From: an uncultured bacterium
GTDB lineage: Bacteria; Planctomycetota; UBA1135; GCA-002686595
Direction: 5' to 3'
Length of the DNA stretch: 64,000 nt
Assembly: GCA_943787795.1 (NCBI GenBank)
Contig: CALSNU010000003.1
Location: forward strand, 416,001 to 480,000
Both the position numbers and the translations under genes were made by a program. The notes below the pieces were generated by a model. It saw only the letters and a list, made by a program, of their open reading frames with translations. It searched no databases and was not told the DNA's origin. Below are positions 48,048 to 57,720 of the stretch, in pieces (the first letter of the stretch is position 1; every line of letters begins with the position of its first letter).

Positions 48048-49634
48048 TCACGGGCAGAAGAGCACGGACATCGCGTTGCTGAAGTTGAACGTCGGCGCCC
48101 CGGCGACGTTGTCGCGGAAGAAGCACTGGAAGTTCAGCGTCATGCCCGGGAGGATCGCCCCGGGGCCCGACGACTGGTTCGGGTCCGTGAAGTCCACGGC
48201 CCGCGCCACGCTGCCGAGGATGCCCGCCTGGACCGCGGGGTAGAGTCGCACCGCGGGCATCTGGGCGGTGCCCATCACGCAGAGGTTGCCGAGCCCGCTC
48301 GGAGCCTGCGTCTGAACCGGCCCGTAGAAGAAGAGCCCGACGGTGAAGGACGGGAGGCCGGAGGCGGCGATGACGAAGTTGTTGTCCGTGATGCTCGCGG
48401 AGCCGGTGGCGGCGATCTGTGCCGGCGCGCCGGAGCTGCCCGCGTTGGAGGAGCAGTAGGTCGTGAAGCCGCAGGCGGGCGGCTCTTCGGTGATCTTCCA
48501 GATGCGGCCGCCGCTCTGGGTGACGATGTAGACCTCGCCGTCGTGGTCCTCACCGAAGGAGCTGATCGAGCTGATCGAGCCGGAGGTCGGGCGCAGCTCG
48601 ACGGTGCGGTCCGTGAAGTTCTGAACCGAGCTCCCGTCGTACTCGATGCTCCAGATCCTGTTCGAGCAGTAGTCCGCGTAGAAGTACGTGCCCTGGAGGC
48701 TCGGGATCGCGCTGCCGCGGTAGATCATCCCGCCGGTCACGCTGCAGCCCTGGCCGTGGTTGTATTCGAAGATCGGATCGAGGAGCGCGGAGTTGGTGCA
48801 GCTGCAGCCGGACAGGCCCGTGCAGCGGGTCCCTTCCTTGCAGCGCCAGCCGAGGTTTTGGCCAGCCTGGCCAGCCGGGATGAAGTCGATCTCCTCCCGT
48901 TGGTTCTGGCCGACGTCGGCGATCCACATGTCACCGGTGGCGCGGTCGAAGGTGAAGCGCCAGGGGTTACGCAGGCCGAGGTGGTAGATCTCGTTGCGGA
49001 CCGAGCTGTTGCCGAGGAAGGGGTTGTCCGCGGGGATGAACGGCGACGCGATGTCCACGTCATAGCGAAGCATCTTGCCCAGCAGCTGCTGACCGTTCTG
49101 GGCGCGGCCATTCGGGTCGTTGCCGGAGCCGCCGTCGCCCAGACCGAAGTAGAGCTTCCCGTCGGGGCCGAACTTGATGCAGCCGCCGTTGTGGTTGGAG
49201 AAGTCCTGGTTGACCTGCGAGATGAACTGAACGCGGGTCGGGTCGGCGACGTTCGGGTCGGAGGACACCGCATACTCGGCGACCCGTGAGTTGCCGGAGT
49301 TGTTGGTGTAGCTGACGAAGAAGCGCCCGTTCGTCATGTAGTCCGGGTGGAACGCGAGGCCGAGGAGGCCGCGCTCGCCGCCGGAGGCGACCTCGGGGTT
49401 GATGTTGAGGAACGGGGTGGTGATCAGCGTCCCGTTCTCGATGACGCGCACGCGGCCTGCCTGCTCGATGACGAAGATCCTTGAAGGGTCCCCGGGAGCG
49501 AACGTGAGGTCGGTCGGGTTCTGGAGGCCCGAGACGAAGAGCTCGGTGGTCAGCGGGGCCTGCGCGGAGGCGGGCGCTGTGATCAGCAGGCCGAGGCCGG
49601 CGAGTGCAGAGGCGAGGAGTGTGCGAAGCATCAT
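48048..49634 (-). CDS. Secreted PQQ-dependent sugar dehydrogenase (GSDH beta-propeller) with conserved C-terminal domain
   Basis: Signal peptide; GERGLLGLAFHPDY, NHNGG, FGPDGKLYFGLGDGG, GLRNPWRF, ADVGQ, SVTGG, SFGED; about 140-aa C-terminal extension. Confidence 0.9.
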   Translation of the reverse strand: MMLRTLLASALAGLGLLITAPASAQAPLTTELFVSGLQNPTDLTFAPGDPSRIFVIEQAGRVRVIENGTLITTPFLNINPEVASGGERGLLGLAFHPDYMTNGRFFVSYTNNSGNSRVAEYAVSSDPNVADPTRVQFISQVNQDFSNHNGGCIKFGPDGKLYFGLGDGGSGNDPNGRAQNGQQLLGKMLRYDVDIASPFIPADNPFLGNSSVRNEIYHLGLRNPWRFTFDRATGDMWIADVGQNQREEIDFIPAGQAGQNLGWRCKEGTRCTGLSGCSCTNSALLDPIFEYNHGQGCSVTGGMIYRGSAIPSLQGTYFYADYCSNRIWSIEYDGSSVQNFTDRTVELRPTSGSISSISSFGEDHDGEVYIVTQSGGRIWKITEEPPACGFTTYCSSNAGSSGAPAQIAATGSASITDNNFVIAASGLPSFTVGLFFYGPVQTQAPSGLGNLCVMGTAQMPAVRLYPAVQAGILGSVARAVDFTDPNQSSGPGAILPGMTLNFQCFFRDNVAGAPTFNFSNAMSVLFCP

Positions 49635-49905: not shown

Positions 49906-51390
49906 ATGACGCTCCGTATGCCCCGCTGGCTGCCTCCTCTCGCCCTGCTTGGCCTCGCGGCCTCCTGCGGGGAGGGAGGTGCGTCCAGGCCCCGGAACGT
50001 GCTCCTGATCACCATGGATACGACCCGGGCGGACCACCTGGGCGCGTACGGTCAGGTCCGATTCGAGACACCTGCCCTGGACGCGTTGGCTTCCGAGGGG
50101 GTGGTCTTCGAGCAGTGCAGCTCCGCAGCCGCGACGACGCTGAGCTCCCACGCGTCCCTCATGACGGGCGCCTATCCGCTGCGACATGGTGTCGTTCGCA
50201 ACGGGTTCAGCGTGCATCCCTCCAACAGGACGCTGGCGGAGGCCCTCAGTGACGCCGGGTTCCGGTGCGCCGCGTTCGTCGCGTCCTCTGCGCTGGTCTC
50301 GGCCACCGGGATGAACCAGGGCTTCGGCGTCTACGACGAGCGCCTCGACCTCCCCGCCTCACCGGGCGGAAACGACCAGGCGCAGCGCCGCGCGGGCTCC
50401 GTCACCGACGCGGTGCTCGCGCACGTGGACGAGCAAGAGGCTGCCGGAGCAGAAGGAGGCCTCTTCCTCTTTGCCCACTACTTCGACCCCCACGCTCCCT
50501 ACGGGGCCCCGGGTTCGGGGGACGTGGGCGGCTTCGGGGACATCGAGTCCGCCGTTGGCGCGCAGCAGCAGCGCGTGCTCGGAGAGGGACCCGGCCAGCA
50601 GGCGGTGATCGGCGGCGGGCTGCCCGCAGCCCTCGCCGGGCCGACGGGCGCCGTCCCGAGCCCTGCGGACGAGCGCCTGGCTGCCCTCTATGGCGCGGAG
50701 GTCGAGTACATGGACGGGGAGATCGGGCGGCTATTGGCCGGGCTGGCGTCCCGGGGCGTGCTCGAGGAGACCCTGGTGGTGATCACCGCGGATCACGGCG
50801 AGACGTTCTGGGAGCAGGGCAACTTCTGGAATCACGGGCTCTGGGTCGGAGAGACGGACGTGCACGTGCCGCTCATCGTCCGCGGCCCCGGCGCGGCCCG
50901 CGGCGCCCGGGTCTCCACGCCGGTCTCAGGGGTCGACGTGGCGCCGACGATCCTGGATGCGGTCGGGCTGGCGCCGGGGCCGGGCGATGACCCGGGCCGC
51001 GGCCGGAGCCTCCTCCCTGCCCTGAGCGGCGCGGAGATGCCTCGGCGAGCCGTGTTCTCCGAGGCGACTCAGCCCGGACCCCGCCTCGAGGGGGCCGAGG
51101 GTCTCCCCTGGGCCGGGGCCGCCAAGCCCCAGGCGGTCCGCCTCGGTCCGTGGAAACTGGTCAAGGCGCCTTACCTCGGCGTGCGTCAGCTCTTCGACCT
51201 CGCCAGTGATCCGGGAGAGCGCCGGGACCTCCTCGCGGACCCTGTGTTGACGCCCACGTCGCGGGACGCGCTCGAGGACCTGGAGCGTGCCCACGCGGTC
51301 TGGGTCGGCGCCGCCGCGCCGCGGCCCTCTGCCTACGACCCGGACCAGGCTGAGGCGCTCCGCAGCCTCGGGTACGGCGGCGATCGGTGA
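49906..51390 (+). CDS. Sulfatase-like lipoprotein (alkaline phosphatase superfamily)
   Basis: Lipobox LAASC; NVLLITMDTTRADHL, TTLSSHASLMTG, HYFDPHAPY, TADHGE, HVPLI, LFDLASDPGE, LRSLGY. Confidence 0.88.
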   Translation: MTLRMPRWLPPLALLGLAASCGEGGASRPRNVLLITMDTTRADHLGAYGQVRFETPALDALASEGVVFEQCSSAAATTLSSHASLMTGAYPLRHGVVRNGFSVHPSNRTLAEALSDAGFRCAAFVASSALVSATGMNQGFGVYDERLDLPASPGGNDQAQRRAGSVTDAVLAHVDEQEAAGAEGGLFLFAHYFDPHAPYGAPGSGDVGGFGDIESAVGAQQQRVLGEGPGQQAVIGGGLPAALAGPTGAVPSPADERLAALYGAEVEYMDGEIGRLLAGLASRGVLEETLVVITADHGETFWEQGNFWNHGLWVGETDVHVPLIVRGPGAARGARVSTPVSGVDVAPTILDAVGLAPGPGDDPGRGRSLLPALSGAEMPRRAVFSEATQPGPRLEGAEGLPWAGAAKPQAVRLGPWKLVKAPYLGVRQLFDLASDPGERRDLLADPVLTPTSRDALEDLERAHAVWVGAAAPRPSAYDPDQAEALRSLGYGGDR

Positions 51391-51723
51391 ACCTCCGTCG
51401 CGGCGCCTGCTCGCGCGGCTCTCAGCGCAGTGACCTTCAGTCCGCGTGACGGGCACCCGGGCGACTCACGATGCCAGACCGAGTGGCCCGCGGGAAGGCG
51501 CCAAACGGTCAGGCGACGACCCTGCCGGCCAGCTCCAGGGCTTGTCACCGAGTTCAAGAGGGCCTGCTTCACTCGCTGCGTTGGTCCGAAGCGCAGCGCT
51601 CAATGGGGGAGCCACGCCCACCCGGGCTCCGCCGTCCAGGCCATCGCAATCGGCGAGCATCCCGGGGGCCTCCGCCATCGGCGGTCATTCCCCCCCCCGC
51701 GGTCGTCAGCCGCGCGGGATGGG

Positions 51724-52713
51724 TCACTCGAAGCTGCCGTGGTGGCGATAGAAGAAGCGGTGGAGGACCTTGCCGTCACGGACGAGCTCGCCGTCCACGA
51801 AGTAGAGGGGGAGCCGCTGATCGCCAGCCTCGGTGCGCTCCGCGTTCATGGCGAGCCGGATGCGGTCACCCGCCTCCACGGAGAAGGGACGGACCGGGAA
51901 GAACGACTGACGCCAGTGGGTGGGCGGGACCATGGGGGAGCAGGACAGCTCCACGTCCGGGGTCAGGTCCACCTCGAACCAGCCGCCGAAGCCGTGCACG
52001 GTGCCGGCGCGCTCGACCAGGAGGGTCGCGGCGGTGGTGAAGAAGAAGTCATCTGCGCAGGCATGGTCGAGGTCGATGTCCAGCACGTCGGCGGGGGTGC
52101 CGAGGAGCGACGCCGGCTTGAGATCGCAGGCCGCGGTGATGAGGCTCTGCACCTCAGCCTCGATCAGGCGGGAGTAGTCGAGGCCGTAGACCGGGCGCTC
52201 CCACAGGCCGAGCCCGAGGTCCTGGTGCACGTGGCTGTCGTCCACGGGCGCGACGCAGAGCCGGAGGGTCCGCGGCAGCATGTGGCCGCCAGGCTTCATG
52301 TAGCGGTCGCGGGCGTCGATCACCGACTCGAACATCAGCTCAGCCAGGCCAAAGAAGCCCATCCACTCGGAGATGATGAGGTCGTAGTCCCCCTCGAGGT
52401 CCAGGTCCTCCATCCGTCCGCGGTGGAAGGTGATGCGGTCCCCGAGGCCGTTGTCGGCGGCCACGTCTCGGGCCACGTCGATGATGGCCGACGAGTCCAC
52501 CGCGTCCACGTGGGCGGCCCCAGCGCGGGCCGCGAACATCGACAGGATGCCAGTGCCGGTCCCCACGTCGAGCACGCGCTTGCCCTTCGCCACGGACTCG
52601 ATCGCCCGGCGATAGCTGTCCGTGCGGGCGTGATCCTGGATCATGAGCCGGTGGACGCCGGGGTCCGCGTAGCTCGCGAAGTAATCGTGGTCGCTCGAAT
52701 AGCCTTCAGACAT
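51724..52713 (-). CDS. Eukaryotic-type (PRMT1-like, type I) protein arginine N-methyltransferase
   Basis: YFASY, HRLMIQDHARTDSY, VLDVGTGTGILSMFAARAGA, double-E loop IISEWMGFFGLAE, RDRYMKPGG, VYGLDYS, VHGFGGWF, PPTHWRQ. ATG 52713 (329 aa); alternative GTG 52743. Confidence 0.9.
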   Translation of the reverse strand: MSEGYSSDHDYFASYADPGVHRLMIQDHARTDSYRRAIESVAKGKRVLDVGTGTGILSMFAARAGAAHVDAVDSSAIIDVARDVAADNGLGDRITFHRGRMEDLDLEGDYDLIISEWMGFFGLAELMFESVIDARDRYMKPGGHMLPRTLRLCVAPVDDSHVHQDLGLGLWERPVYGLDYSRLIEAEVQSLITAACDLKPASLLGTPADVLDIDLDHACADDFFFTTAATLLVERAGTVHGFGGWFEVDLTPDVELSCSPMVPPTHWRQSFFPVRPFSVEAGDRIRLAMNAERTEAGDQRLPLYFVDGELVRDGKVLHRFFYRHHGSFE

Positions 52714-52877
52714 GGGCGGGAGGGTGCCAGAGGGTCGGGTCACGGGGTTCAGAATTCGGCGGTTGGCAAGAAAAGAGCATTGGGGGCAAGGAGCGCCGCT
52801 CGATGGCTGAGGGCAGGGAGCGCGGGTTGAGCAGGTGATGGTTGAGATCGGACCTCGCGGGTTCCTATCGTCGTGCC

Positions 52878-54692
52878 ATGGCGAGCGAGACGACCCAGGC
52901 CGGTCCGGCCGCGCGCGCTGCCGCGGCAGGCGCGCTCGACCCCGGCGCCCTCTTCACGCTGGAGGAGGCGGCGGGTCGGGTGCGCGTTCCCATCGAGGAT
53001 CTCGAGGCCCGCTGCGACCGCGGCGAGCTGCTCTTCGAGACGCGCCGACGGGGCCGCCAGGAGGTGCGCTGCGTCCGAGGTCTTGATCTTGCGGAGGCCT
53101 TCCCCGGCGCCCCCGACCCAGCCCGTTCGTTGGGCAAGGGCCGCTCATCCGGCGGCGCCAGCGTGCCCGATCGACCCAGCCTGGGCGGGGGCGCGGCGGA
53201 CGGGTCGAATCCGCGCGAGCCCTCAGCGGCTTCCCCATCGGCCTCCCCGGTGACTTCCCCGGGGTCCCCTAAAGAGCCCTCTTCAGGTTCTTCTCTAGGG
53301 TCCTCTTCAGCGGGGACTGAGGCGAAGGACAGGGGCGGGGTGGCTGCGGATCCTGGGCGGGTTCAGTCCACTGCCGCTCAGGCCGCTGCGACTCAGGCCG
53401 CTGCGACTCAGGCCGCTGCGACTCAGGCCGCTGCGACTCAGGCCACTGCGACTCAGGCCACTGCGACTCAGGCCACTGCGACTCAGGCCGCTGCGACTCA
53501 GGCCGCTGCGACTCAGGCCACTGCGACTCAGGCCACTGCGACGTTCCCGGCGAGCGGACCTCGAGGCAGCGGACCTCGAGACAGCGGACCTCGAGACAGC
53601 GGAAACAGCGTCGCGGAGGCGGTTCGAGGCTCGGGGGCGAGCCGAGACGCGCTGATCGGGCTGTGCCAGGATCTGGAGACACGCCTGGACCTTGCCGAGC
53701 GAGAGCGTCAGGCGAGCACCGCCTCGTTGCTCATGGCCCAGCGGCACGTCCTCGACCTCGAGCTGCGAGGTCGCTCAGGGTCCTGGGTTCGAGCGGGTGG
53801 CGCCGCGCTGGGGCTCATGTCGGTCTCGGCGCTTGTCGTCATGGCGATGCTCCCCGGCTGGTTGGACGACCGAGCGGCCGGGCGCGAGGCGCTTCAGGGC
53901 GCCCAGCTCACGGCCGAGATCGGTCGGCTGGAAGCCTCCATGGGGTCGCTGGCCGCGGCCTCGGACGAGGAGCGAGCGGCGCTCTCTGCGCAGCTCGAGG
54001 CCCGTACTGCGCAGCTTGCGACCCGTACGGAATCGCTGGTCGCGGAGCGGCGTCTCGCGCTGCAAGCCATGGCGGACGCGGCGGCGGAGCGTGAGCGTGC
54101 GGAGGAGGTCCGGCTCGCGAACATCGAGCAGCTGAACCAGCTCGAGGAGCGGCTCGTGGCCTCCGACCGGCAGGCGGTCCGCCGCAGCGCTGAGCTCGGG
54201 GTCATCGTGGAGTCGAGCGCGCGTGATCGTGCGCGGTTCGACGAGCGCCTCGCCGCAGCGGAACGGTCTGCGGGGGCTGCGCGAGACGCCCTGAGCGAGG
54301 CCAGAGCTCGCTCCGCTGAGGAGCGGCGCCGCTACGAGGATCAGCTCGCCGCCGCGGAGGCGGAGCGTGCCGCCCAGCACGCCGCGCGCGCGGCAGAAGC
54401 CCAGGCGCTCCGGGCCGAGATCCGTGGATTGATGGCCGAGCTTGAGCTGGGTCAGACCCGAGCCGTCGCGGCGTTGGAGGCCGCGGAGGCAAGGCTCCTG
54501 ATCCAGATGGAGGACCGCACCACCTCTGATGGCGGGGTCTTCACGGAGGTCAGCGCCCCTGGCGCGGTCGCAGCGTCCGCCGCGGGGATGCCCCTCCCTG
54601 AGGGTTCAGTTCCCGTCGAGGTATGGGACCTCCCGGAGGCGCCGGCCGGGTCCTGGTGGACCCGGGCCCTTCGCTCGATGGTCGGCCGCTGA
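52878..54692 (+). CDS. MerR/Xis-like HTH protein with repeat linker, TM helix and long coiled coil
   Basis: FTLEEAAGRVRV..DLEARCDRGEL HTH; (A[A/T]ATQ)n linker; hydrophobic segment AALGLMSVSALVVMAMLPGWL; Ala/Glu/Arg heptad-rich region; terminal SWWTRALRSMVGR. Confidence 0.75.
   Translation: MASETTQAGPAARAAAAGALDPGALFTLEEAAGRVRVPIEDLEARCDRGELLFETRRRGRQEVRCVRGLDLAEAFPGAPDPARSLGKGRSSGGASVPDRPSLGGGAADGSNPREPSAASPSASPVTSPGSPKEPSSGSSLGSSSAGTEAKDRGGVAADPGRVQSTAAQAAATQAAATQAAATQAAATQATATQATATQATATQAAATQAAATQATATQATATFPASGPRGSGPRDSGPRDSGNSVAEAVRGSGASRDALIGLCQDLETRLDLAERERQASTASLLMAQRHVLDLELRGRSGSWVRAGGAALGLMSVSALVVMAMLPGWLDDRAAGREALQGAQLTAEIGRLEASMGSLAAASDEERAALSAQLEARTAQLATRTESLVAERRLALQAMADAAAERERAEEVRLANIEQLNQLEERLVASDRQAVRRSAELGVIVESSARDRARFDERLAAAERSAGAARDALSEARARSAEERRRYEDQLAAAEAERAAQHAARAAEAQALRAEIRGLMAELELGQTRAVAALEAAEARLLIQMEDRTTSDGGVFTEVSAPGAVAASAAGMPLPEGSVPVEVWDLPEAPAGSWWTRALRSMVGR
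53382..53597 (+). repeat. In-frame 15-bp VNTRs: GCC[G/A]CTGCGACTCAG x10 plus partial, then AGCGGACCTCGAG[G/A]C x3
   Basis: Encode AAATQ/ATATQ (53382-53546) and SGPR[G/D] (53553-53597). Confidence 0.95.
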
Positions 54693-54895: not shown

Positions 54896-55936
54896 TCAGG
54901 GGAGGAAGGTCACAGAGACGGCGTCGGTGGTGTTCGAGGTCGCAGCGCCCCCGCTCGCGTCCCGGAACCAGTACTGGAAGTTCCATGACTCACCAGCGTT
55001 GATCGACGCCGCGGACGGCAGCCCGGAGAAGGGGATGGGGAAGTTCACCTGGCCGGTGAAGCCCGAGCTCTGGATGAAGTTCGAGAGGCGGAAGATCCCA
55101 CCGCTGAGGCAGAGGTTGCCCTGCCCGCCTCCGAGCCCGGTGGAGAACCCCTGGGTCTCGGAGAAGATGAAGTACCCGAGCGACAGGGTCGGGAGGTTCG
55201 ATGCGTCGAGGGTGAGGGAGTTGGCGAATAGGCTCTGGGAGCCGGAGGCCTGGATGATCCCGGCGGCTCCACTGGAGTTGGCGACCGACGAGCAGTAGCT
55301 CGTCGGCGCAGGCGCGGTGTAGTCCGCGACGAGGCTGCCCTGGACGTCAAAGTCCGCGGTGACGCCGGAGCCAGGGTCGGAGAGCTGGAAGTTCAGCTGC
55401 AGGGGGGCGTTCAGGCTGAGCGTGGACCCGTTGGCCGAGATCGTTCCATTCAGGGGCTGAGGCGTGCTCATGGTCCCGGTCAAGTCGCCCACCGAAGGCG
55501 ACCCGCCAAGGGGCGTGATGGTCGACGTCCCGCTGACGGTGGTTGAGAAGAGATTCACCACGAAGCTCCCGCCGTTCACGCTCCCCGCGTTGGACTGCAG
55601 CTCAAGGCGGAGGTTGCTGATGACGATGGTCGCGAGCGCTGGCAAGAACGGGACGGGGTTCGGGATCTCGGCCACGAGGTCCGGCGTGACGAGCACGCTC
55701 TCTCCGGGAACGAATTGGATGGTCTGGATCGGGAGGCCGCCGGTGGTGGCGATGATGTTGCAGGCGCCGACCAGGGTGAAGTTCGGCGGGTTACCGACGA
55801 TGGGTCCCAGGGACGTGGAGCCAGAGAAGGTGAACTGCGAGGCTGCTTGGTCGACCGTGAACGTGGCCGGGCTCTGGGCTGTAGCCGTCGAGGCGAGCAG
55901 CGTGGAGAGCGCGCTGATGAGGAGGAGGTGTCGCAT
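54896..55936 (-). CDS. Secreted beta-rich protein with the same C-terminal domain as 48048-49634
   Basis: Signal peptide MRHLLLISALSTLLASTATAQ; C-terminal SYCSSVANSSG...GNLCLSG...WNFQYWFRD...SNTTDAVSVTFLP. Confidence 0.82.
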   Translation of the reverse strand: MRHLLLISALSTLLASTATAQSPATFTVDQAASQFTFSGSTSLGPIVGNPPNFTLVGACNIIATTGGLPIQTIQFVPGESVLVTPDLVAEIPNPVPFLPALATIVISNLRLELQSNAGSVNGGSFVVNLFSTTVSGTSTITPLGGSPSVGDLTGTMSTPQPLNGTISANGSTLSLNAPLQLNFQLSDPGSGVTADFDVQGSLVADYTAPAPTSYCSSVANSSGAAGIIQASGSQSLFANSLTLDASNLPTLSLGYFIFSETQGFSTGLGGGQGNLCLSGGIFRLSNFIQSSGFTGQVNFPIPFSGLPSAASINAGESWNFQYWFRDASGGAATSNTTDAVSVTFLP

Positions 55937-56064
55937 GGATCCGCTTCGAGAGTGCAGGGGGAGATCCTTCAATCCTGCCTCGCTGCTGGGGTTCGTGCCA
56001 TCTCCAGCGGATCCGGCATGCCCTAAGCTGGCGGTGGGAAGCCCCACCGTGTACACAACGATCC

Positions 56065-57720
56065 ATGGCTCAGGAAGAGACAGGCGACCTTGAGGGCGCG
56101 GCAAGCCGCCCCCAGCGCCGCTCCACGTCCCCGGAGGCGGCGTGGGATCCCGAGCAGTGGTGGTCCTTCGGCGAGGCCGCAGATCGGGCAGGCGTGACCC
56201 ATCGGACACTGCAGGGGTGGGCGGAGCGAGGGGAGGTGATGGTCCGGACGGCGTGGCGAGAGGGCACCGAGTTCCGGCTCGTGCGGGCGGGTGACGTCGC
56301 GCGCCTCGCGCCGGAGGCGGCTGGCCTTGTGGGGGAGTCTGCGCCGCTGGAGCAACGGGCCCTCTTCACCGGGCCGAGGCGGTCCGCCCTCGGGGCGGGC
56401 GCGCCGCCATCGCCGCTCAGCCCTGCGGGCGCGCAGCCGGCTCGCTACGACGACGATCGCGATGCCTTCAGGCGCACGGCCGAGCTCGAGATCGTGCGCC
56501 TCAGGGAGGAGCTGAGCTCGCTCCGCCGCCGAGGAGACGCTGGCTCAAGCCGCGCCGCGGCTTCACCGGCGCCCATGGACCTCTGGTCGATCGAGGAGCC
56601 CCGTCGCGCTGGCCTTCAAGGCGGGAGGCCCTGGGGTCCCCGGCGACTGGCCGTCTTCCTGGCCGGGCTGACGCTGGGGCTGAGCGTTGGCGTGGCCTGG
56701 GAGCGTGGTTCGCTCGCGGACCGCGAGCCTCTCGACGCCGCCCAGGGAGAGCCGGCCGGGACACCTGTCTCTCTCGCCGGGCTCACCGGACGGGACGGGC
56801 TCGCGGGACCGGACGGGCTCGCGGGACCGGACGGGCTCGCGGGACCGGACGGGCTCACGGGACCGGACGGGCTGGCGGGCTCCGGTGGTTCGGCTGGCGC
56901 CGCTGAGGCAGCTGGGCCGGCAGGTCCATCCAGCGCATCTGCGCTTGGAGACCCGACGCCTGGAGACCCGACGCTTGGAGACCCGACGCCTGGAGACCCG
57001 ACGCCTGGAGACTCGGTGGCTGGCACGGCCGAACCGGCGGTCGCCGGGCCGATCCGTGCTGCAAGCGTGGCCGCGATCACGGCCCCCAAGCTCGAGAAGG
57101 TCGCCCCTGGGCCAGAGGTCGCCCTTCCCCTCGGGCTGGGCGCGTGGCTCGAAGGGGGGCGCGGCGTGTCCTTCAGCTCACTGGACGGAGCTTCAACGTG
57201 TGCCTTCGGCAGCGGAGACCTCGCGACGCCCGCTTCGCGCTTCGTCCTCGGTAGCTGCTGGGGTGAACTCGCCCCGGGGGGAGCGACGGTCCTCGCGACC
57301 GACCGGGTGGAGGGGGTGGCGTGCTGCAAGCACCACGCGGCGGTCCAGCGCTTGAAGGGCGTCGCTTCGACGCCGCGGGCGCTCGAGGTCGCCATGAAGG
57401 AGGCCGAGCAGGCCGTCAGGGACGGGCTCCTGCCGCCCATGCTCGAGCTCCGGGCCGATCGTTCGGGGCTGCTCCTCGCGCGCGCGCTCACTGGAGGGTG
57501 GCGCGCCTCCGGCTTCGACGGTCCCGTGGCGGAACGCACCCACGTCTGGCGCCTTGCGGACGGACCCGAGGGGACGCCGGATGGCGTTGGGGCGCGGCTT
57601 GAACTCCACAGCTGGGTCGAGCGTGGCCTTGACGGCGCGTATGTACCGTTCCGCCTCGTGCTCGAGCTGGGCGGCAGCACGTCGGGGGATCGGGCCCTTG
57701 AGTTTCAGTGGCTCGAGTGA
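56065..57720 (+). CDS. MerR/Xis-like HTH protein with coiled coil, TM helix, collagen-like repeat and Cys-containing C-terminal region
   Basis: WSFGEAADRAGVTHRTLQGWAERGEV HTH; TM LAVFLAGLTLGLSVGVAW; about 14 Gly-X-Y triplets; GDPT[P/L] x4. Confidence 0.72.
   Translation: MAQEETGDLEGAASRPQRRSTSPEAAWDPEQWWSFGEAADRAGVTHRTLQGWAERGEVMVRTAWREGTEFRLVRAGDVARLAPEAAGLVGESAPLEQRALFTGPRRSALGAGAPPSPLSPAGAQPARYDDDRDAFRRTAELEIVRLREELSSLRRRGDAGSSRAAASPAPMDLWSIEEPRRAGLQGGRPWGPRRLAVFLAGLTLGLSVGVAWERGSLADREPLDAAQGEPAGTPVSLAGLTGRDGLAGPDGLAGPDGLAGPDGLTGPDGLAGSGGSAGAAEAAGPAGPSSASALGDPTPGDPTLGDPTPGDPTPGDSVAGTAEPAVAGPIRAASVAAITAPKLEKVAPGPEVALPLGLGAWLEGGRGVSFSSLDGASTCAFGSGDLATPASRFVLGSCWGELAPGGATVLATDRVEGVACCKHHAAVQRLKGVASTPRALEVAMKEAEQAVRDGLLPPMLELRADRSGLLLARALTGGWRASGFDGPVAERTHVWRLADGPEGTPDGVGARLELHSWVERGLDGAYVPFRLVLELGGSTSGDRALEFQWLE
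56794..57015 (+). repeat. In-frame VNTRs: 18-bp GACGGGCTC[G/A]CGGGACCG x4 plus partial, and 15-bp GGAGACCCGACGC[C/T]T x4
   Basis: 56794-56880 encodes (DGLAGP)n; 56947-57015 encodes (GDPTP/L)n. Confidence 0.92.

Follow-up and report, generated by a model that had tools for sequence, protein, structure and literature searches.

Our analysis concerns a single gene in a 64,000-nucleotide stretch of DNA (hereafter the window), which makes up positions 416001-480000 of the 555,707-base contig C3 in the 4.7 Mb, 8-contig genome of an uncultured marine planctomycete. On the minus strand of the window lies a complete gene for an enzyme of the protein arginine methyltransferase (PRMT) type, with a convergent sulfatase gene (49906-51390) on one side and a divergent gene for a 616-residue protein, which we call F2, on the other. 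The textbook view is that PRMTs are a eukaryotic invention. An initial annotation of the window had singled the gene out as a eukaryotic-type, PRMT1-like enzyme in a bacterial chromosome, and had offered for it either an ancient acquisition or a native bacterial lineage, and a role either on the cell's own proteins or as an effector. In what follows we describe the gene and its protein, its authenticity and descent, and finally what the enzyme might do.

The PRMT gene and its protein

The listing of open reading frames (ORFs) in the window gives a minus-strand ORF at 51724..52743, with 339 codons counted from a GTG. In 12 of the 12 genes retrieved from the genus, however, the start is the ATG at 52713, each gene encoding 329 residues, and the closest database homologues are likewise 329 residues long. 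Since this ATG is common to all 12 genus genes, we take 51724-52713 (-) to be the correct gene model. The features of the locus are collected in Table 1.

Table 1. Features of the PRMT locus (positions in the window)
Feature	Position	Strand	Basis or description
Gene for PRMT-type arginine methyltransferase, 329 aa, from the ATG through the stop codon	51724..52713	-	ORF, Pfam, PDB sequence matches, model
YFASY of the N-terminal helix (YFxxY)	52669..52683	-	translation; invariant in 12 genus genes
Motif I VLDVGTGTGILS, SAM-binding glycine loop	52540..52575	-	translation
Double-E loop SEWMGFFGLAE	52339..52371	-	translation; E126 and E135 in 339-aa numbering
Dimerisation arm, about residues 170-204	52132..52236	-	model helices 170-176, 179-182, 192-198
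THW loop, T275-H276-W277, within PPTHWRQ	51913..51921	-	translation; invariant in genus
Spacer between PRMT gene and divergent neighbour, 128 bp	52714..52841	.	sequence
Divergent neighbour F2, 616 aa	52842..54692	+	N-terminus weakly similar to HTH_17, low-complexity stretch of ATQ repeats, a single hydrophobic segment, long tail resembling a coiled coil

Read in order, the motifs of the translation are YFASY, HRLMIQDHARTDSY, VLDVGTGTGILS, SEWMGFFGLAE, RDRYMKPGG, WERPVYGLDYS, HGFGGWF and PPTHWRQ, so that every type I motif named in the initial annotation is found letter for letter and in its place. Judged as a pattern of letters, such a set is far beyond chance. Within motif I, V57, G61, G63 and G65 are invariant among 109 homologues. 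E126, E135, T275, H276 and W277 are invariant in an alignment of 23 bacterial and eukaryotic sequences, and in the same alignment M34 and M137 are nearly invariant and fall on methionines of the eukaryotic type I enzymes. The features of the type I catalytic core are all present: the Rossmann domain with motif I and YFxxY, the double-E loop, the THW loop, and a beta-barrel with an inserted arm. The protein is acidic (isoelectric point 4.92). It begins MSEGYSSDHDYF, only about 10 residues ahead of the first PRMT helix, and has no signal peptide, in agreement with the initial annotation.

Profile and structure comparisons lead to the same family. The Pfam model PRMT_C (PF22528) matches with 70.3 bits against a cut-off of 27 (E 2.4e-19), and a class I methyltransferase domain is also matched (Methyltransf_25, E 3.2e-13). 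A phmmer search of PDB sequences gives E 3.3e-51 to PRMT1/Hmt1 across residues 20-300, and the best matches are all PRMT1, 3, 8, 6, 2 or CARM1. The AlphaFold2 model, built from an input of 109 homologues, has a mean predicted local distance difference test score (pLDDT) of 94.8 and a predicted template modelling score (pTM) of 0.90. When this model is compared with the PDB by Foldseek, only type I PRMTs are found among the matches listed; the ten best, which include PRMT8 5dst, PRMT1 6nt2, PRMT3 1f3l, TbPRMT1, Hmt1 and PRMT6, have template modelling (TM) scores of 0.80-0.86 by query and 0.82-0.92 by target, and for PRMT8, PRMT1 and PRMT3 the scores lie at 0.85-0.92. The earlier claim of a complete PRMT-fold enzyme with double-E and THW loops is thus borne out by the PRMT_C match, the PDB sequence matches, the model and the structure search, and the same search, which could have returned PrmA or a small-molecule methyltransferase as best match, listed neither.

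We also weighed the ribosomal protein L11 methyltransferase PrmA directly, and rejected it. With the NCBIfam models for PrmA the protein reaches 32-48 bits where 183-327 are required, and no NCBIfam model of any kind passes its cut-off on the protein. The Pfam profile for PrmA is matched only at positions 151-233 of its 296, leaving the N-terminal L11-binding domain without a counterpart. NCBI nevertheless names an 81%-identical homologue, P0005, from the strain 'Planctomycetes bacterium Poly30', a 'ribosomal protein L11 methyltransferase'. Going by these sequence comparisons, that name is most likely a mis-annotation. Some homologues carry the JGI label 'protein arginine N-methyltransferase 1'.

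In eukaryotic PRMTs a homodimer held together by the arm is needed for activity. A dimer model, which the initial annotation had proposed as a check, does predict a PRMT-style homodimer: over three runs the median interaction prediction score from aligned errors (ipSAE) is 0.78, and the highest score among three controls is 0.00. Of the proteins with known structures, 20 of 30 that were solved as pairs reach that mark, as does 1 of 23 that were solved as single chains. Contact agreement between the runs is 45% or more and the partner pLDDT is at least 87, and the predicted interface places the arm (174-204) of one copy against the Rossmann helices 28-45, 64-73 and 90-98 of the other.

Genomic authenticity, descent and distribution

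Could the gene have come recently from a eukaryote, or be an artefact of eukaryotic contamination or of a chimeric assembly? Among database homologues, the fungal and kinetoplastid PRMT1 proteins are 37-42% identical to the window PRMT, a resemblance that speaks for such an origin. On the other hand, the gene has a G+C content at third codon positions (GC3) of 0.92, and both GC and GC3 are like those of the adjoining genes, as the initial annotation had noted for GC3. A second genome of the genus carries a 99% identical PRMT protein with the same gene order on both sides. The window stretch recurs in many marine metagenome runs, and the two ends of the gene are bridged by contigs from two marine metagenome runs of other, independent studies, one (X8 record 12) spanning 51201-52053 and the other (X5 record 11) 51691-53200. 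The gene is therefore a genuine part of the planctomycete genome, with neither contamination nor a chimeric join, and the earlier judgement on this point holds. Parts of the gene are also covered by contigs from two metatranscriptome libraries. The gene is possibly expressed; since DNA may be present in such libraries and carry-over is possible, this cover is a weak hint, and the gene parts left uncovered by the RNA-library contigs carry no information.

A recent transfer was addressed by two trees, both unrooted. The first, made with FastTree from 303 PRMT cores after removal of fragments below 270 residues and of eleven partial or near-duplicate rows, gathers the eukaryote-type sequences into a single clade of 79 rows on a long stem with support 100, and places the window PRMT in a separate assemblage of 108 prokaryotic rows. 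The second, made with IQ-TREE under LG+C20 with a quick search, uses 76 rows picked to represent every group, with L047, L048 and L049 left out as long branches. Nine of its rows are labelled as eukaryotic, seven by their NCBI names and two by the presence of SH3 or PRMT3 zinc-finger domains; a branch with SH-aLRT 99 separates these nine from all 37 rows labelled as prokaryotic. The window PRMT falls with planctomycete sequences in an 11-row clade (support 96). In neither tree does it lie inside the eukaryotic PRMT1/3/8 orthologue group. As sister to the eukaryotic clade, FastTree gives an Actinomycetes/Myxococcota group (support 89) and IQ-TREE an open polytomy.

The trees exclude a recent eukaryotic origin of the window PRMT; their deep forks are open, and they leave the direction of any ancient transfer undecided. 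Together with the composition, the synteny and the independent contigs across both flanks, they leave us giving next to no weight to recent transfer, contamination or chimera, and a eukaryotic origin of the gene is not supported, since in the phylogeny it is not nested among eukaryotic PRMTs. By its sequence, the window PRMT is a member of a native prokaryotic branch of the PRMT superfamily.

This branch is wide. In a representative library, 13,793 cluster representatives match the window PRMT at E <= 0.001 and 1,402 at E <= 1e-30. By record title, full-length homologues outside the phylum come from Myxococcota (Nannocystis exedens, Polyangiaceae), Actinomycetes, Nitrospirales, Paracoccaceae, Opitutaceae (Verrucomicrobiota), Streptomyces mutomycini, Vampirovibrionales and Thermoanaerobaculia. 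A more distant homologue occurs in Thorarchaeota. Within the Planctomycetota a homologue is present at E <= 1e-20 in 47 of 401 sampled genomes (about 12%), in a patchy pattern. The premise that the motif set defines eukaryotic PRMTs, on which the first reading of the gene was founded, does not survive these counts. As an observation in its own right, two loci from archaeal metagenome-assembled genomes, L048 (Thorarchaeota, labelled as an Asgard lineage) and L049 (an uncultured archaeon), hold distant PRMT-like genes with 26% identity, and these bear on the origin of the eukaryotic PRMTs.

Closer to the window the pattern is sharper. Of 12 other species of the genus, 11 carry PF22528, which is absent from all 8 sampled genomes of the order's other families and from all 14 well-known control genomes. 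In the phylum sample a homologue is present in 4 of 12 genomes of the window's own family and in 0 of 11 from three other sampled families of the order. A second sample of the family, with 20 genomes, includes five that have the gene, and these are the ones nearest to the window genome by identity of the ribosomal protein uS3, at 79-83% against 72% or less for the rest. Since the five positives are the closest relatives, the gene marks one sub-lineage, with vertical inheritance there. The 12 genus genes (from the window genome and 11 others) are intact 329-residue ORFs with invariant catalytic residues, and the median pairwise ratio of nonsynonymous to synonymous substitution rates (dN/dS) is 0.154 over 66 pairs, with a range of 0.010-0.264. 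The gene is kept vertically in the genus under purifying selection. Of the origins first suggested, the native bacterial lineage is the one that these data uphold.

Acceptor, substrates and neighbouring genes

How would such an enzyme act? The window PRMT would use the eukaryotic type I catalytic apparatus, that is the YFxxY helix, motif I, the double-E loop and the THW loop. The double-E loop would hold the guanidinium group, and the omega nitrogen of arginine would be methylated to give monomethylarginine and probably asymmetric dimethylarginine. The analysis shows the fold, the motifs, the conservation, the selection and the genomic authenticity; the arginine acceptor, the product type and the protein substrates we infer, and our preferred reading, which we hold to be probable with a good deal of room for doubt, is that of a functional, cytoplasmic, homodimeric methyltransferase of the PRMT fold, dependent on S-adenosylmethionine (SAM), native to prokaryotes and vertically inherited, that likely carries out omega-N methylation of arginines in the cell's own proteins. 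Cellular proteins are favoured as substrates because the protein has no N-terminal extension, because its gene has no biosynthetic neighbours, and because the short stand-alone PRMT homologues of other phyla also sit among housekeeping genes.

Which cellular proteins might these be? Tails rich in RG or RGG occur in several RNA-handling proteins of the genome, namely TruD, a DEAD-box helicase, uS3, an RluB-like pseudouridine synthase, KptA and a Ski2-like helicase, and the first five of these would be candidate targets. TruD, a tRNA pseudouridine synthase (contig C4, 336511-338328, minus strand, L124), ends in a 205-residue Gly/Arg-rich tail with 39 RG/GR dipeptides. This tail resembles the glycine- and arginine-rich (GAR) domains of eukaryotes. 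Across the family TruD tails range from 2 to 416 residues and are present with or without a PRMT gene. As they show no association with that gene, we rejected the idea of GAR tails as a co-evolving substrate. The uS3 protein (contig C4, 64170-64985, minus strand, L126) has an RGG-rich tail at its end, GGRYDRGGPRRGSGRRGGRGRGGPRGGGGGGG... A pseudouridine synthase that adjoins a Myxococcota PRMT homologue was also considered as a substrate, and was dropped since it has no RGG tail.

Several observations weigh against our preferred reading. The TruD tail is RG-rich (at least 14 RG/GR) in 3 of 5 PRMT-positive family genomes, against 8 of 15 PRMT-negative ones. The uS3 tail is RG-rich (at least 6 RG/GR) in 6 of 6 PRMT-positive family genomes against 2 of 12 PRMT-negative ones, a contrast that gives no independent support because all the positives belong to a single lineage. 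On a larger scale the gene can be dispensed with, being missing from 15 of 20 family genomes and, elsewhere in the order, present in 0 of 11 and 0 of 8. The success of the predicted dimer may reflect memory of solved PRMT structures, because the predicted interface is the arrangement of the solved PRMT dimers. The asymmetric product would depend on M34 and M137, which we take to be the counterparts of the PRMT1 residues that steer asymmetric dimethylation. Finally, a passage of Aravind et al. (PMC3417536) puts the closest bacterial relatives of PRMTs in peptide-antibiotic operons.

This last point bears on whether the window PRMT modifies a natural product, a small peptide of ribosomal or non-ribosomal origin, a role put forward for other PRMT-like enzymes of bacteria. 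A conserved N-terminal extension of about 90 residues does occur in many homologues that are about 400 residues long (P0063, P0090, P0123, P0124, P0127 and others), and these extended homologues may be peptide-modifying forms. One of them, at L035:5698-6954 (+), lies beside a TldD/PmbA-type peptidase and an MBOAT acyltransferase. The extension has no Pfam domain at E <= 0.01 in 14 proteins, so that even these extended relatives have neither an RRE nor a PqqD domain by Pfam. The window PRMT itself lacks the extension and starts about 10 residues before YFxSY. In the eight loci of its clade there are no biosynthetic genes, neither for nonribosomal peptide synthetases (NRPS) or polyketide synthases (PKS) nor for ribosomally synthesised and post-translationally modified peptides (RiPPs), and from genus to genus the neighbours vary while the PRMT gene stays. 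We give peptide tailoring a modest chance at best.

The acceptor could also be free L-arginine or another small guanidino compound, as for SznE/StzE of streptozotocin biosynthesis, where we presume SznE to be a PRMT-fold enzyme. Sequence and fold cannot separate a free from a peptidyl arginine acceptor, and a review passage describes a bacterial enzyme that N-methylates free arginine. Against this, no partner enzymes that would use methylarginine are found nearby, and the window PRMT retains the beta-barrel of the protein-acting PRMTs in full, along with their arm and their acidic surface, and we see only a slim chance for a small-molecule acceptor. As for a secreted or injected effector that methylates the proteins of a eukaryotic host or prey, raised in the initial annotation, the precedent is a passage of PMC10117894 whose discussion of host-targeting methyltransferases takes in predicted PRMTs of Legionella pneumophila. 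For the window PRMT we found no evidence of such a role: it has no signal peptide or N-terminal extension, no secretion genes adjoin it, its inheritance is vertical within a genus that occurs in seawater metagenomes, and it is not nested among the eukaryotic PRMTs. An effector is thus very unlikely, and we return to the methylation of the cell's own proteins as our preferred reading.

The neighbouring genes say little about the substrate. Gene order is kept only within the genus, and neighbours differ across the eight loci of the PRMT clade. What recurs there is F2, a family of secreted proteins (F1), and, at four loci, a membrane protein followed by an M18 aminopeptidase. We looked among these for an operon partner and rejected them, as none explains the enzyme. 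A promoter and terminator scan found no sigma-70-like site in the spacer between the PRMT gene and F2 and no terminator in the scanned stretch; the one promoter-like match in that stretch (52842-52871, plus strand) lies at the start of F2's own ORF.

F2 adjoins the PRMT gene divergently in the window and at L114, L115 and L154, and lies within about 6 kb of it at L150 and on the PRMT contig of genome G401. In the family sample it was detected in at least 3 of the 5 other genomes that have a PRMT gene and in 0 of the 15 that lack one, counts that are a floor from a weak search, with positives from one lineage. The similarity of its N-terminus to the helix-turn-helix (HTH) domain HTH_17 is sub-threshold, with E 8.6e-4 and 0.01 in two homologues. 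NCBIfam gave nothing useful for F2, and the atlas scores, at 0.85 or less, are leads only. Its low-complexity stretch, at about 53370-53600, consists of about 14 tandem five-residue repeats (AAATQ/ATATQ), and a same-genus homologue is 52 residues shorter, at 564 against 616.

Two secreted proteins of the F1 family are encoded in the window (48048-49634 and 54896-56209, both on the minus strand). They share a C-terminal domain of about 110 residues that ends ...NFQ(C/Y)(F/W)FRD...SV(L/T)F(C/L)P. One of them is a PQQ-type glucose/sorbosone dehydrogenase and the other has no Pfam or NCBIfam match. F1 recurs near the PRMT gene in five other family loci (L114, L115, L116, L152 and L154), and its C-terminal domain may be an undescribed planctomycete sorting or anchoring domain. 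Further along, an ORF at 56065-57720 (+) has a marginal collagen-triple-helix match, 27.4 bits against a cut-off of 27.2. It overlaps other long ORFs in a stretch of 74% GC, where a GC3 filter gave no clear gene between 56209 and 57554.

More speculatively, we can extend our preferred reading to the cell as a whole. It is conceivable, and we would put it no more strongly, that this planctomycete runs an endogenous system of arginine methylation, in which a stand-alone PRMT dimer acts on the RG/RGG tails of uS3, TruD, the RluB-like synthase and the DEAD-box helicase. Such a system would be the prokaryotic equivalent, and perhaps a precursor, of the PRMT1-GAR axis with which eukaryotes tune RNA-protein assemblies, and F2, the often-linked HTH/coiled-coil membrane protein, would be a partner or regulator. 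If it is true that the enzyme methylates cellular proteins, arginine methylation would be a bacterial regulatory modification, and a prokaryote would offer a way to study how the eukaryotic PRMT-GAR system arose. The bacterial PRMT branch is large and barely studied, and the window PRMT offers a clean test case, being stand-alone, complete, under purifying selection and present in almost every sampled species of its genus. Its value is that of a tractable candidate for showing protein arginine methylation by a bacterial PRMT, and should the strain Poly30 prove growable, tests would become practical.

Comparison with known systems

With PrmA the window PRMT shares the class I SAM-binding Rossmann core, and differs from it in having no N-terminal substrate domain. 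To our knowledge PrmA, for its part, lacks the beta-barrel and the double-E and THW loops.

Full-text literature searches, for which subscription journals were mostly out of reach, returned no experimental study of a bacterial PRMT-fold enzyme, only predictions in passages of PMC3417536 and PMC10117894. Bacterial PRMT homologues are thus already in print as predictions, and the window PRMT is not new as a sequence observation, in spite of the novelty that the initial annotation had implied. A passage of the 2022 review PMC10117894 mentions two predicted PRMTs of Legionella pneumophila, with function unknown, and names Rv1988 as the only bacterial nucleomodulin for which arginine methyltransferase activity has been shown so far. 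The Legionella genes (Cazalet 2004, as cited in that review) resemble ours in being bacterial genes annotated as PRMTs. They are presented there as possible host-directed effectors of an intracellular pathogen, whereas the window PRMT comes from a free-living marine planctomycete. The bacterial PRMT-like peptide methylases of Aravind et al. 2011, as a passage of PMC3417536 cites them, share with the window PRMT the superfamily, the catalytic motifs and a bacterial host. Unlike these, as they are described in that passage, the window PRMT has no N-terminal extension and no NRPS, RiPP or oxygenase neighbours, stands alone, and is conserved through its genus.

The remaining comparison is with the type I PRMTs of eukaryotes (PRMT1/Hmt1, 3, 8, 6, 2 and CARM1). 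Here the setting is different, since the host has no histones or known methylarginine readers, and so are some details of the protein: it lacks the N-terminal modules (SH3, zinc finger) of the eukaryotic paralogues, it reads 'HRLM' where the eukaryotic sequences read 'HEEM', and its C-terminal hairpin has a sequence of its own (GDxRLPLYF...GSFE). In other respects the likeness runs the length of the protein, with a full-length alignment at about 30-34% identity, and it takes in the Rossmann domain, the beta-barrel, the dimerisation arm, and the YFxxY, motif I, double-E and THW elements. It would extend to the assembled enzyme as well, as the homodimer predicted for the window PRMT packs arm against Rossmann domain just as the eukaryotic type I PRMTs do.

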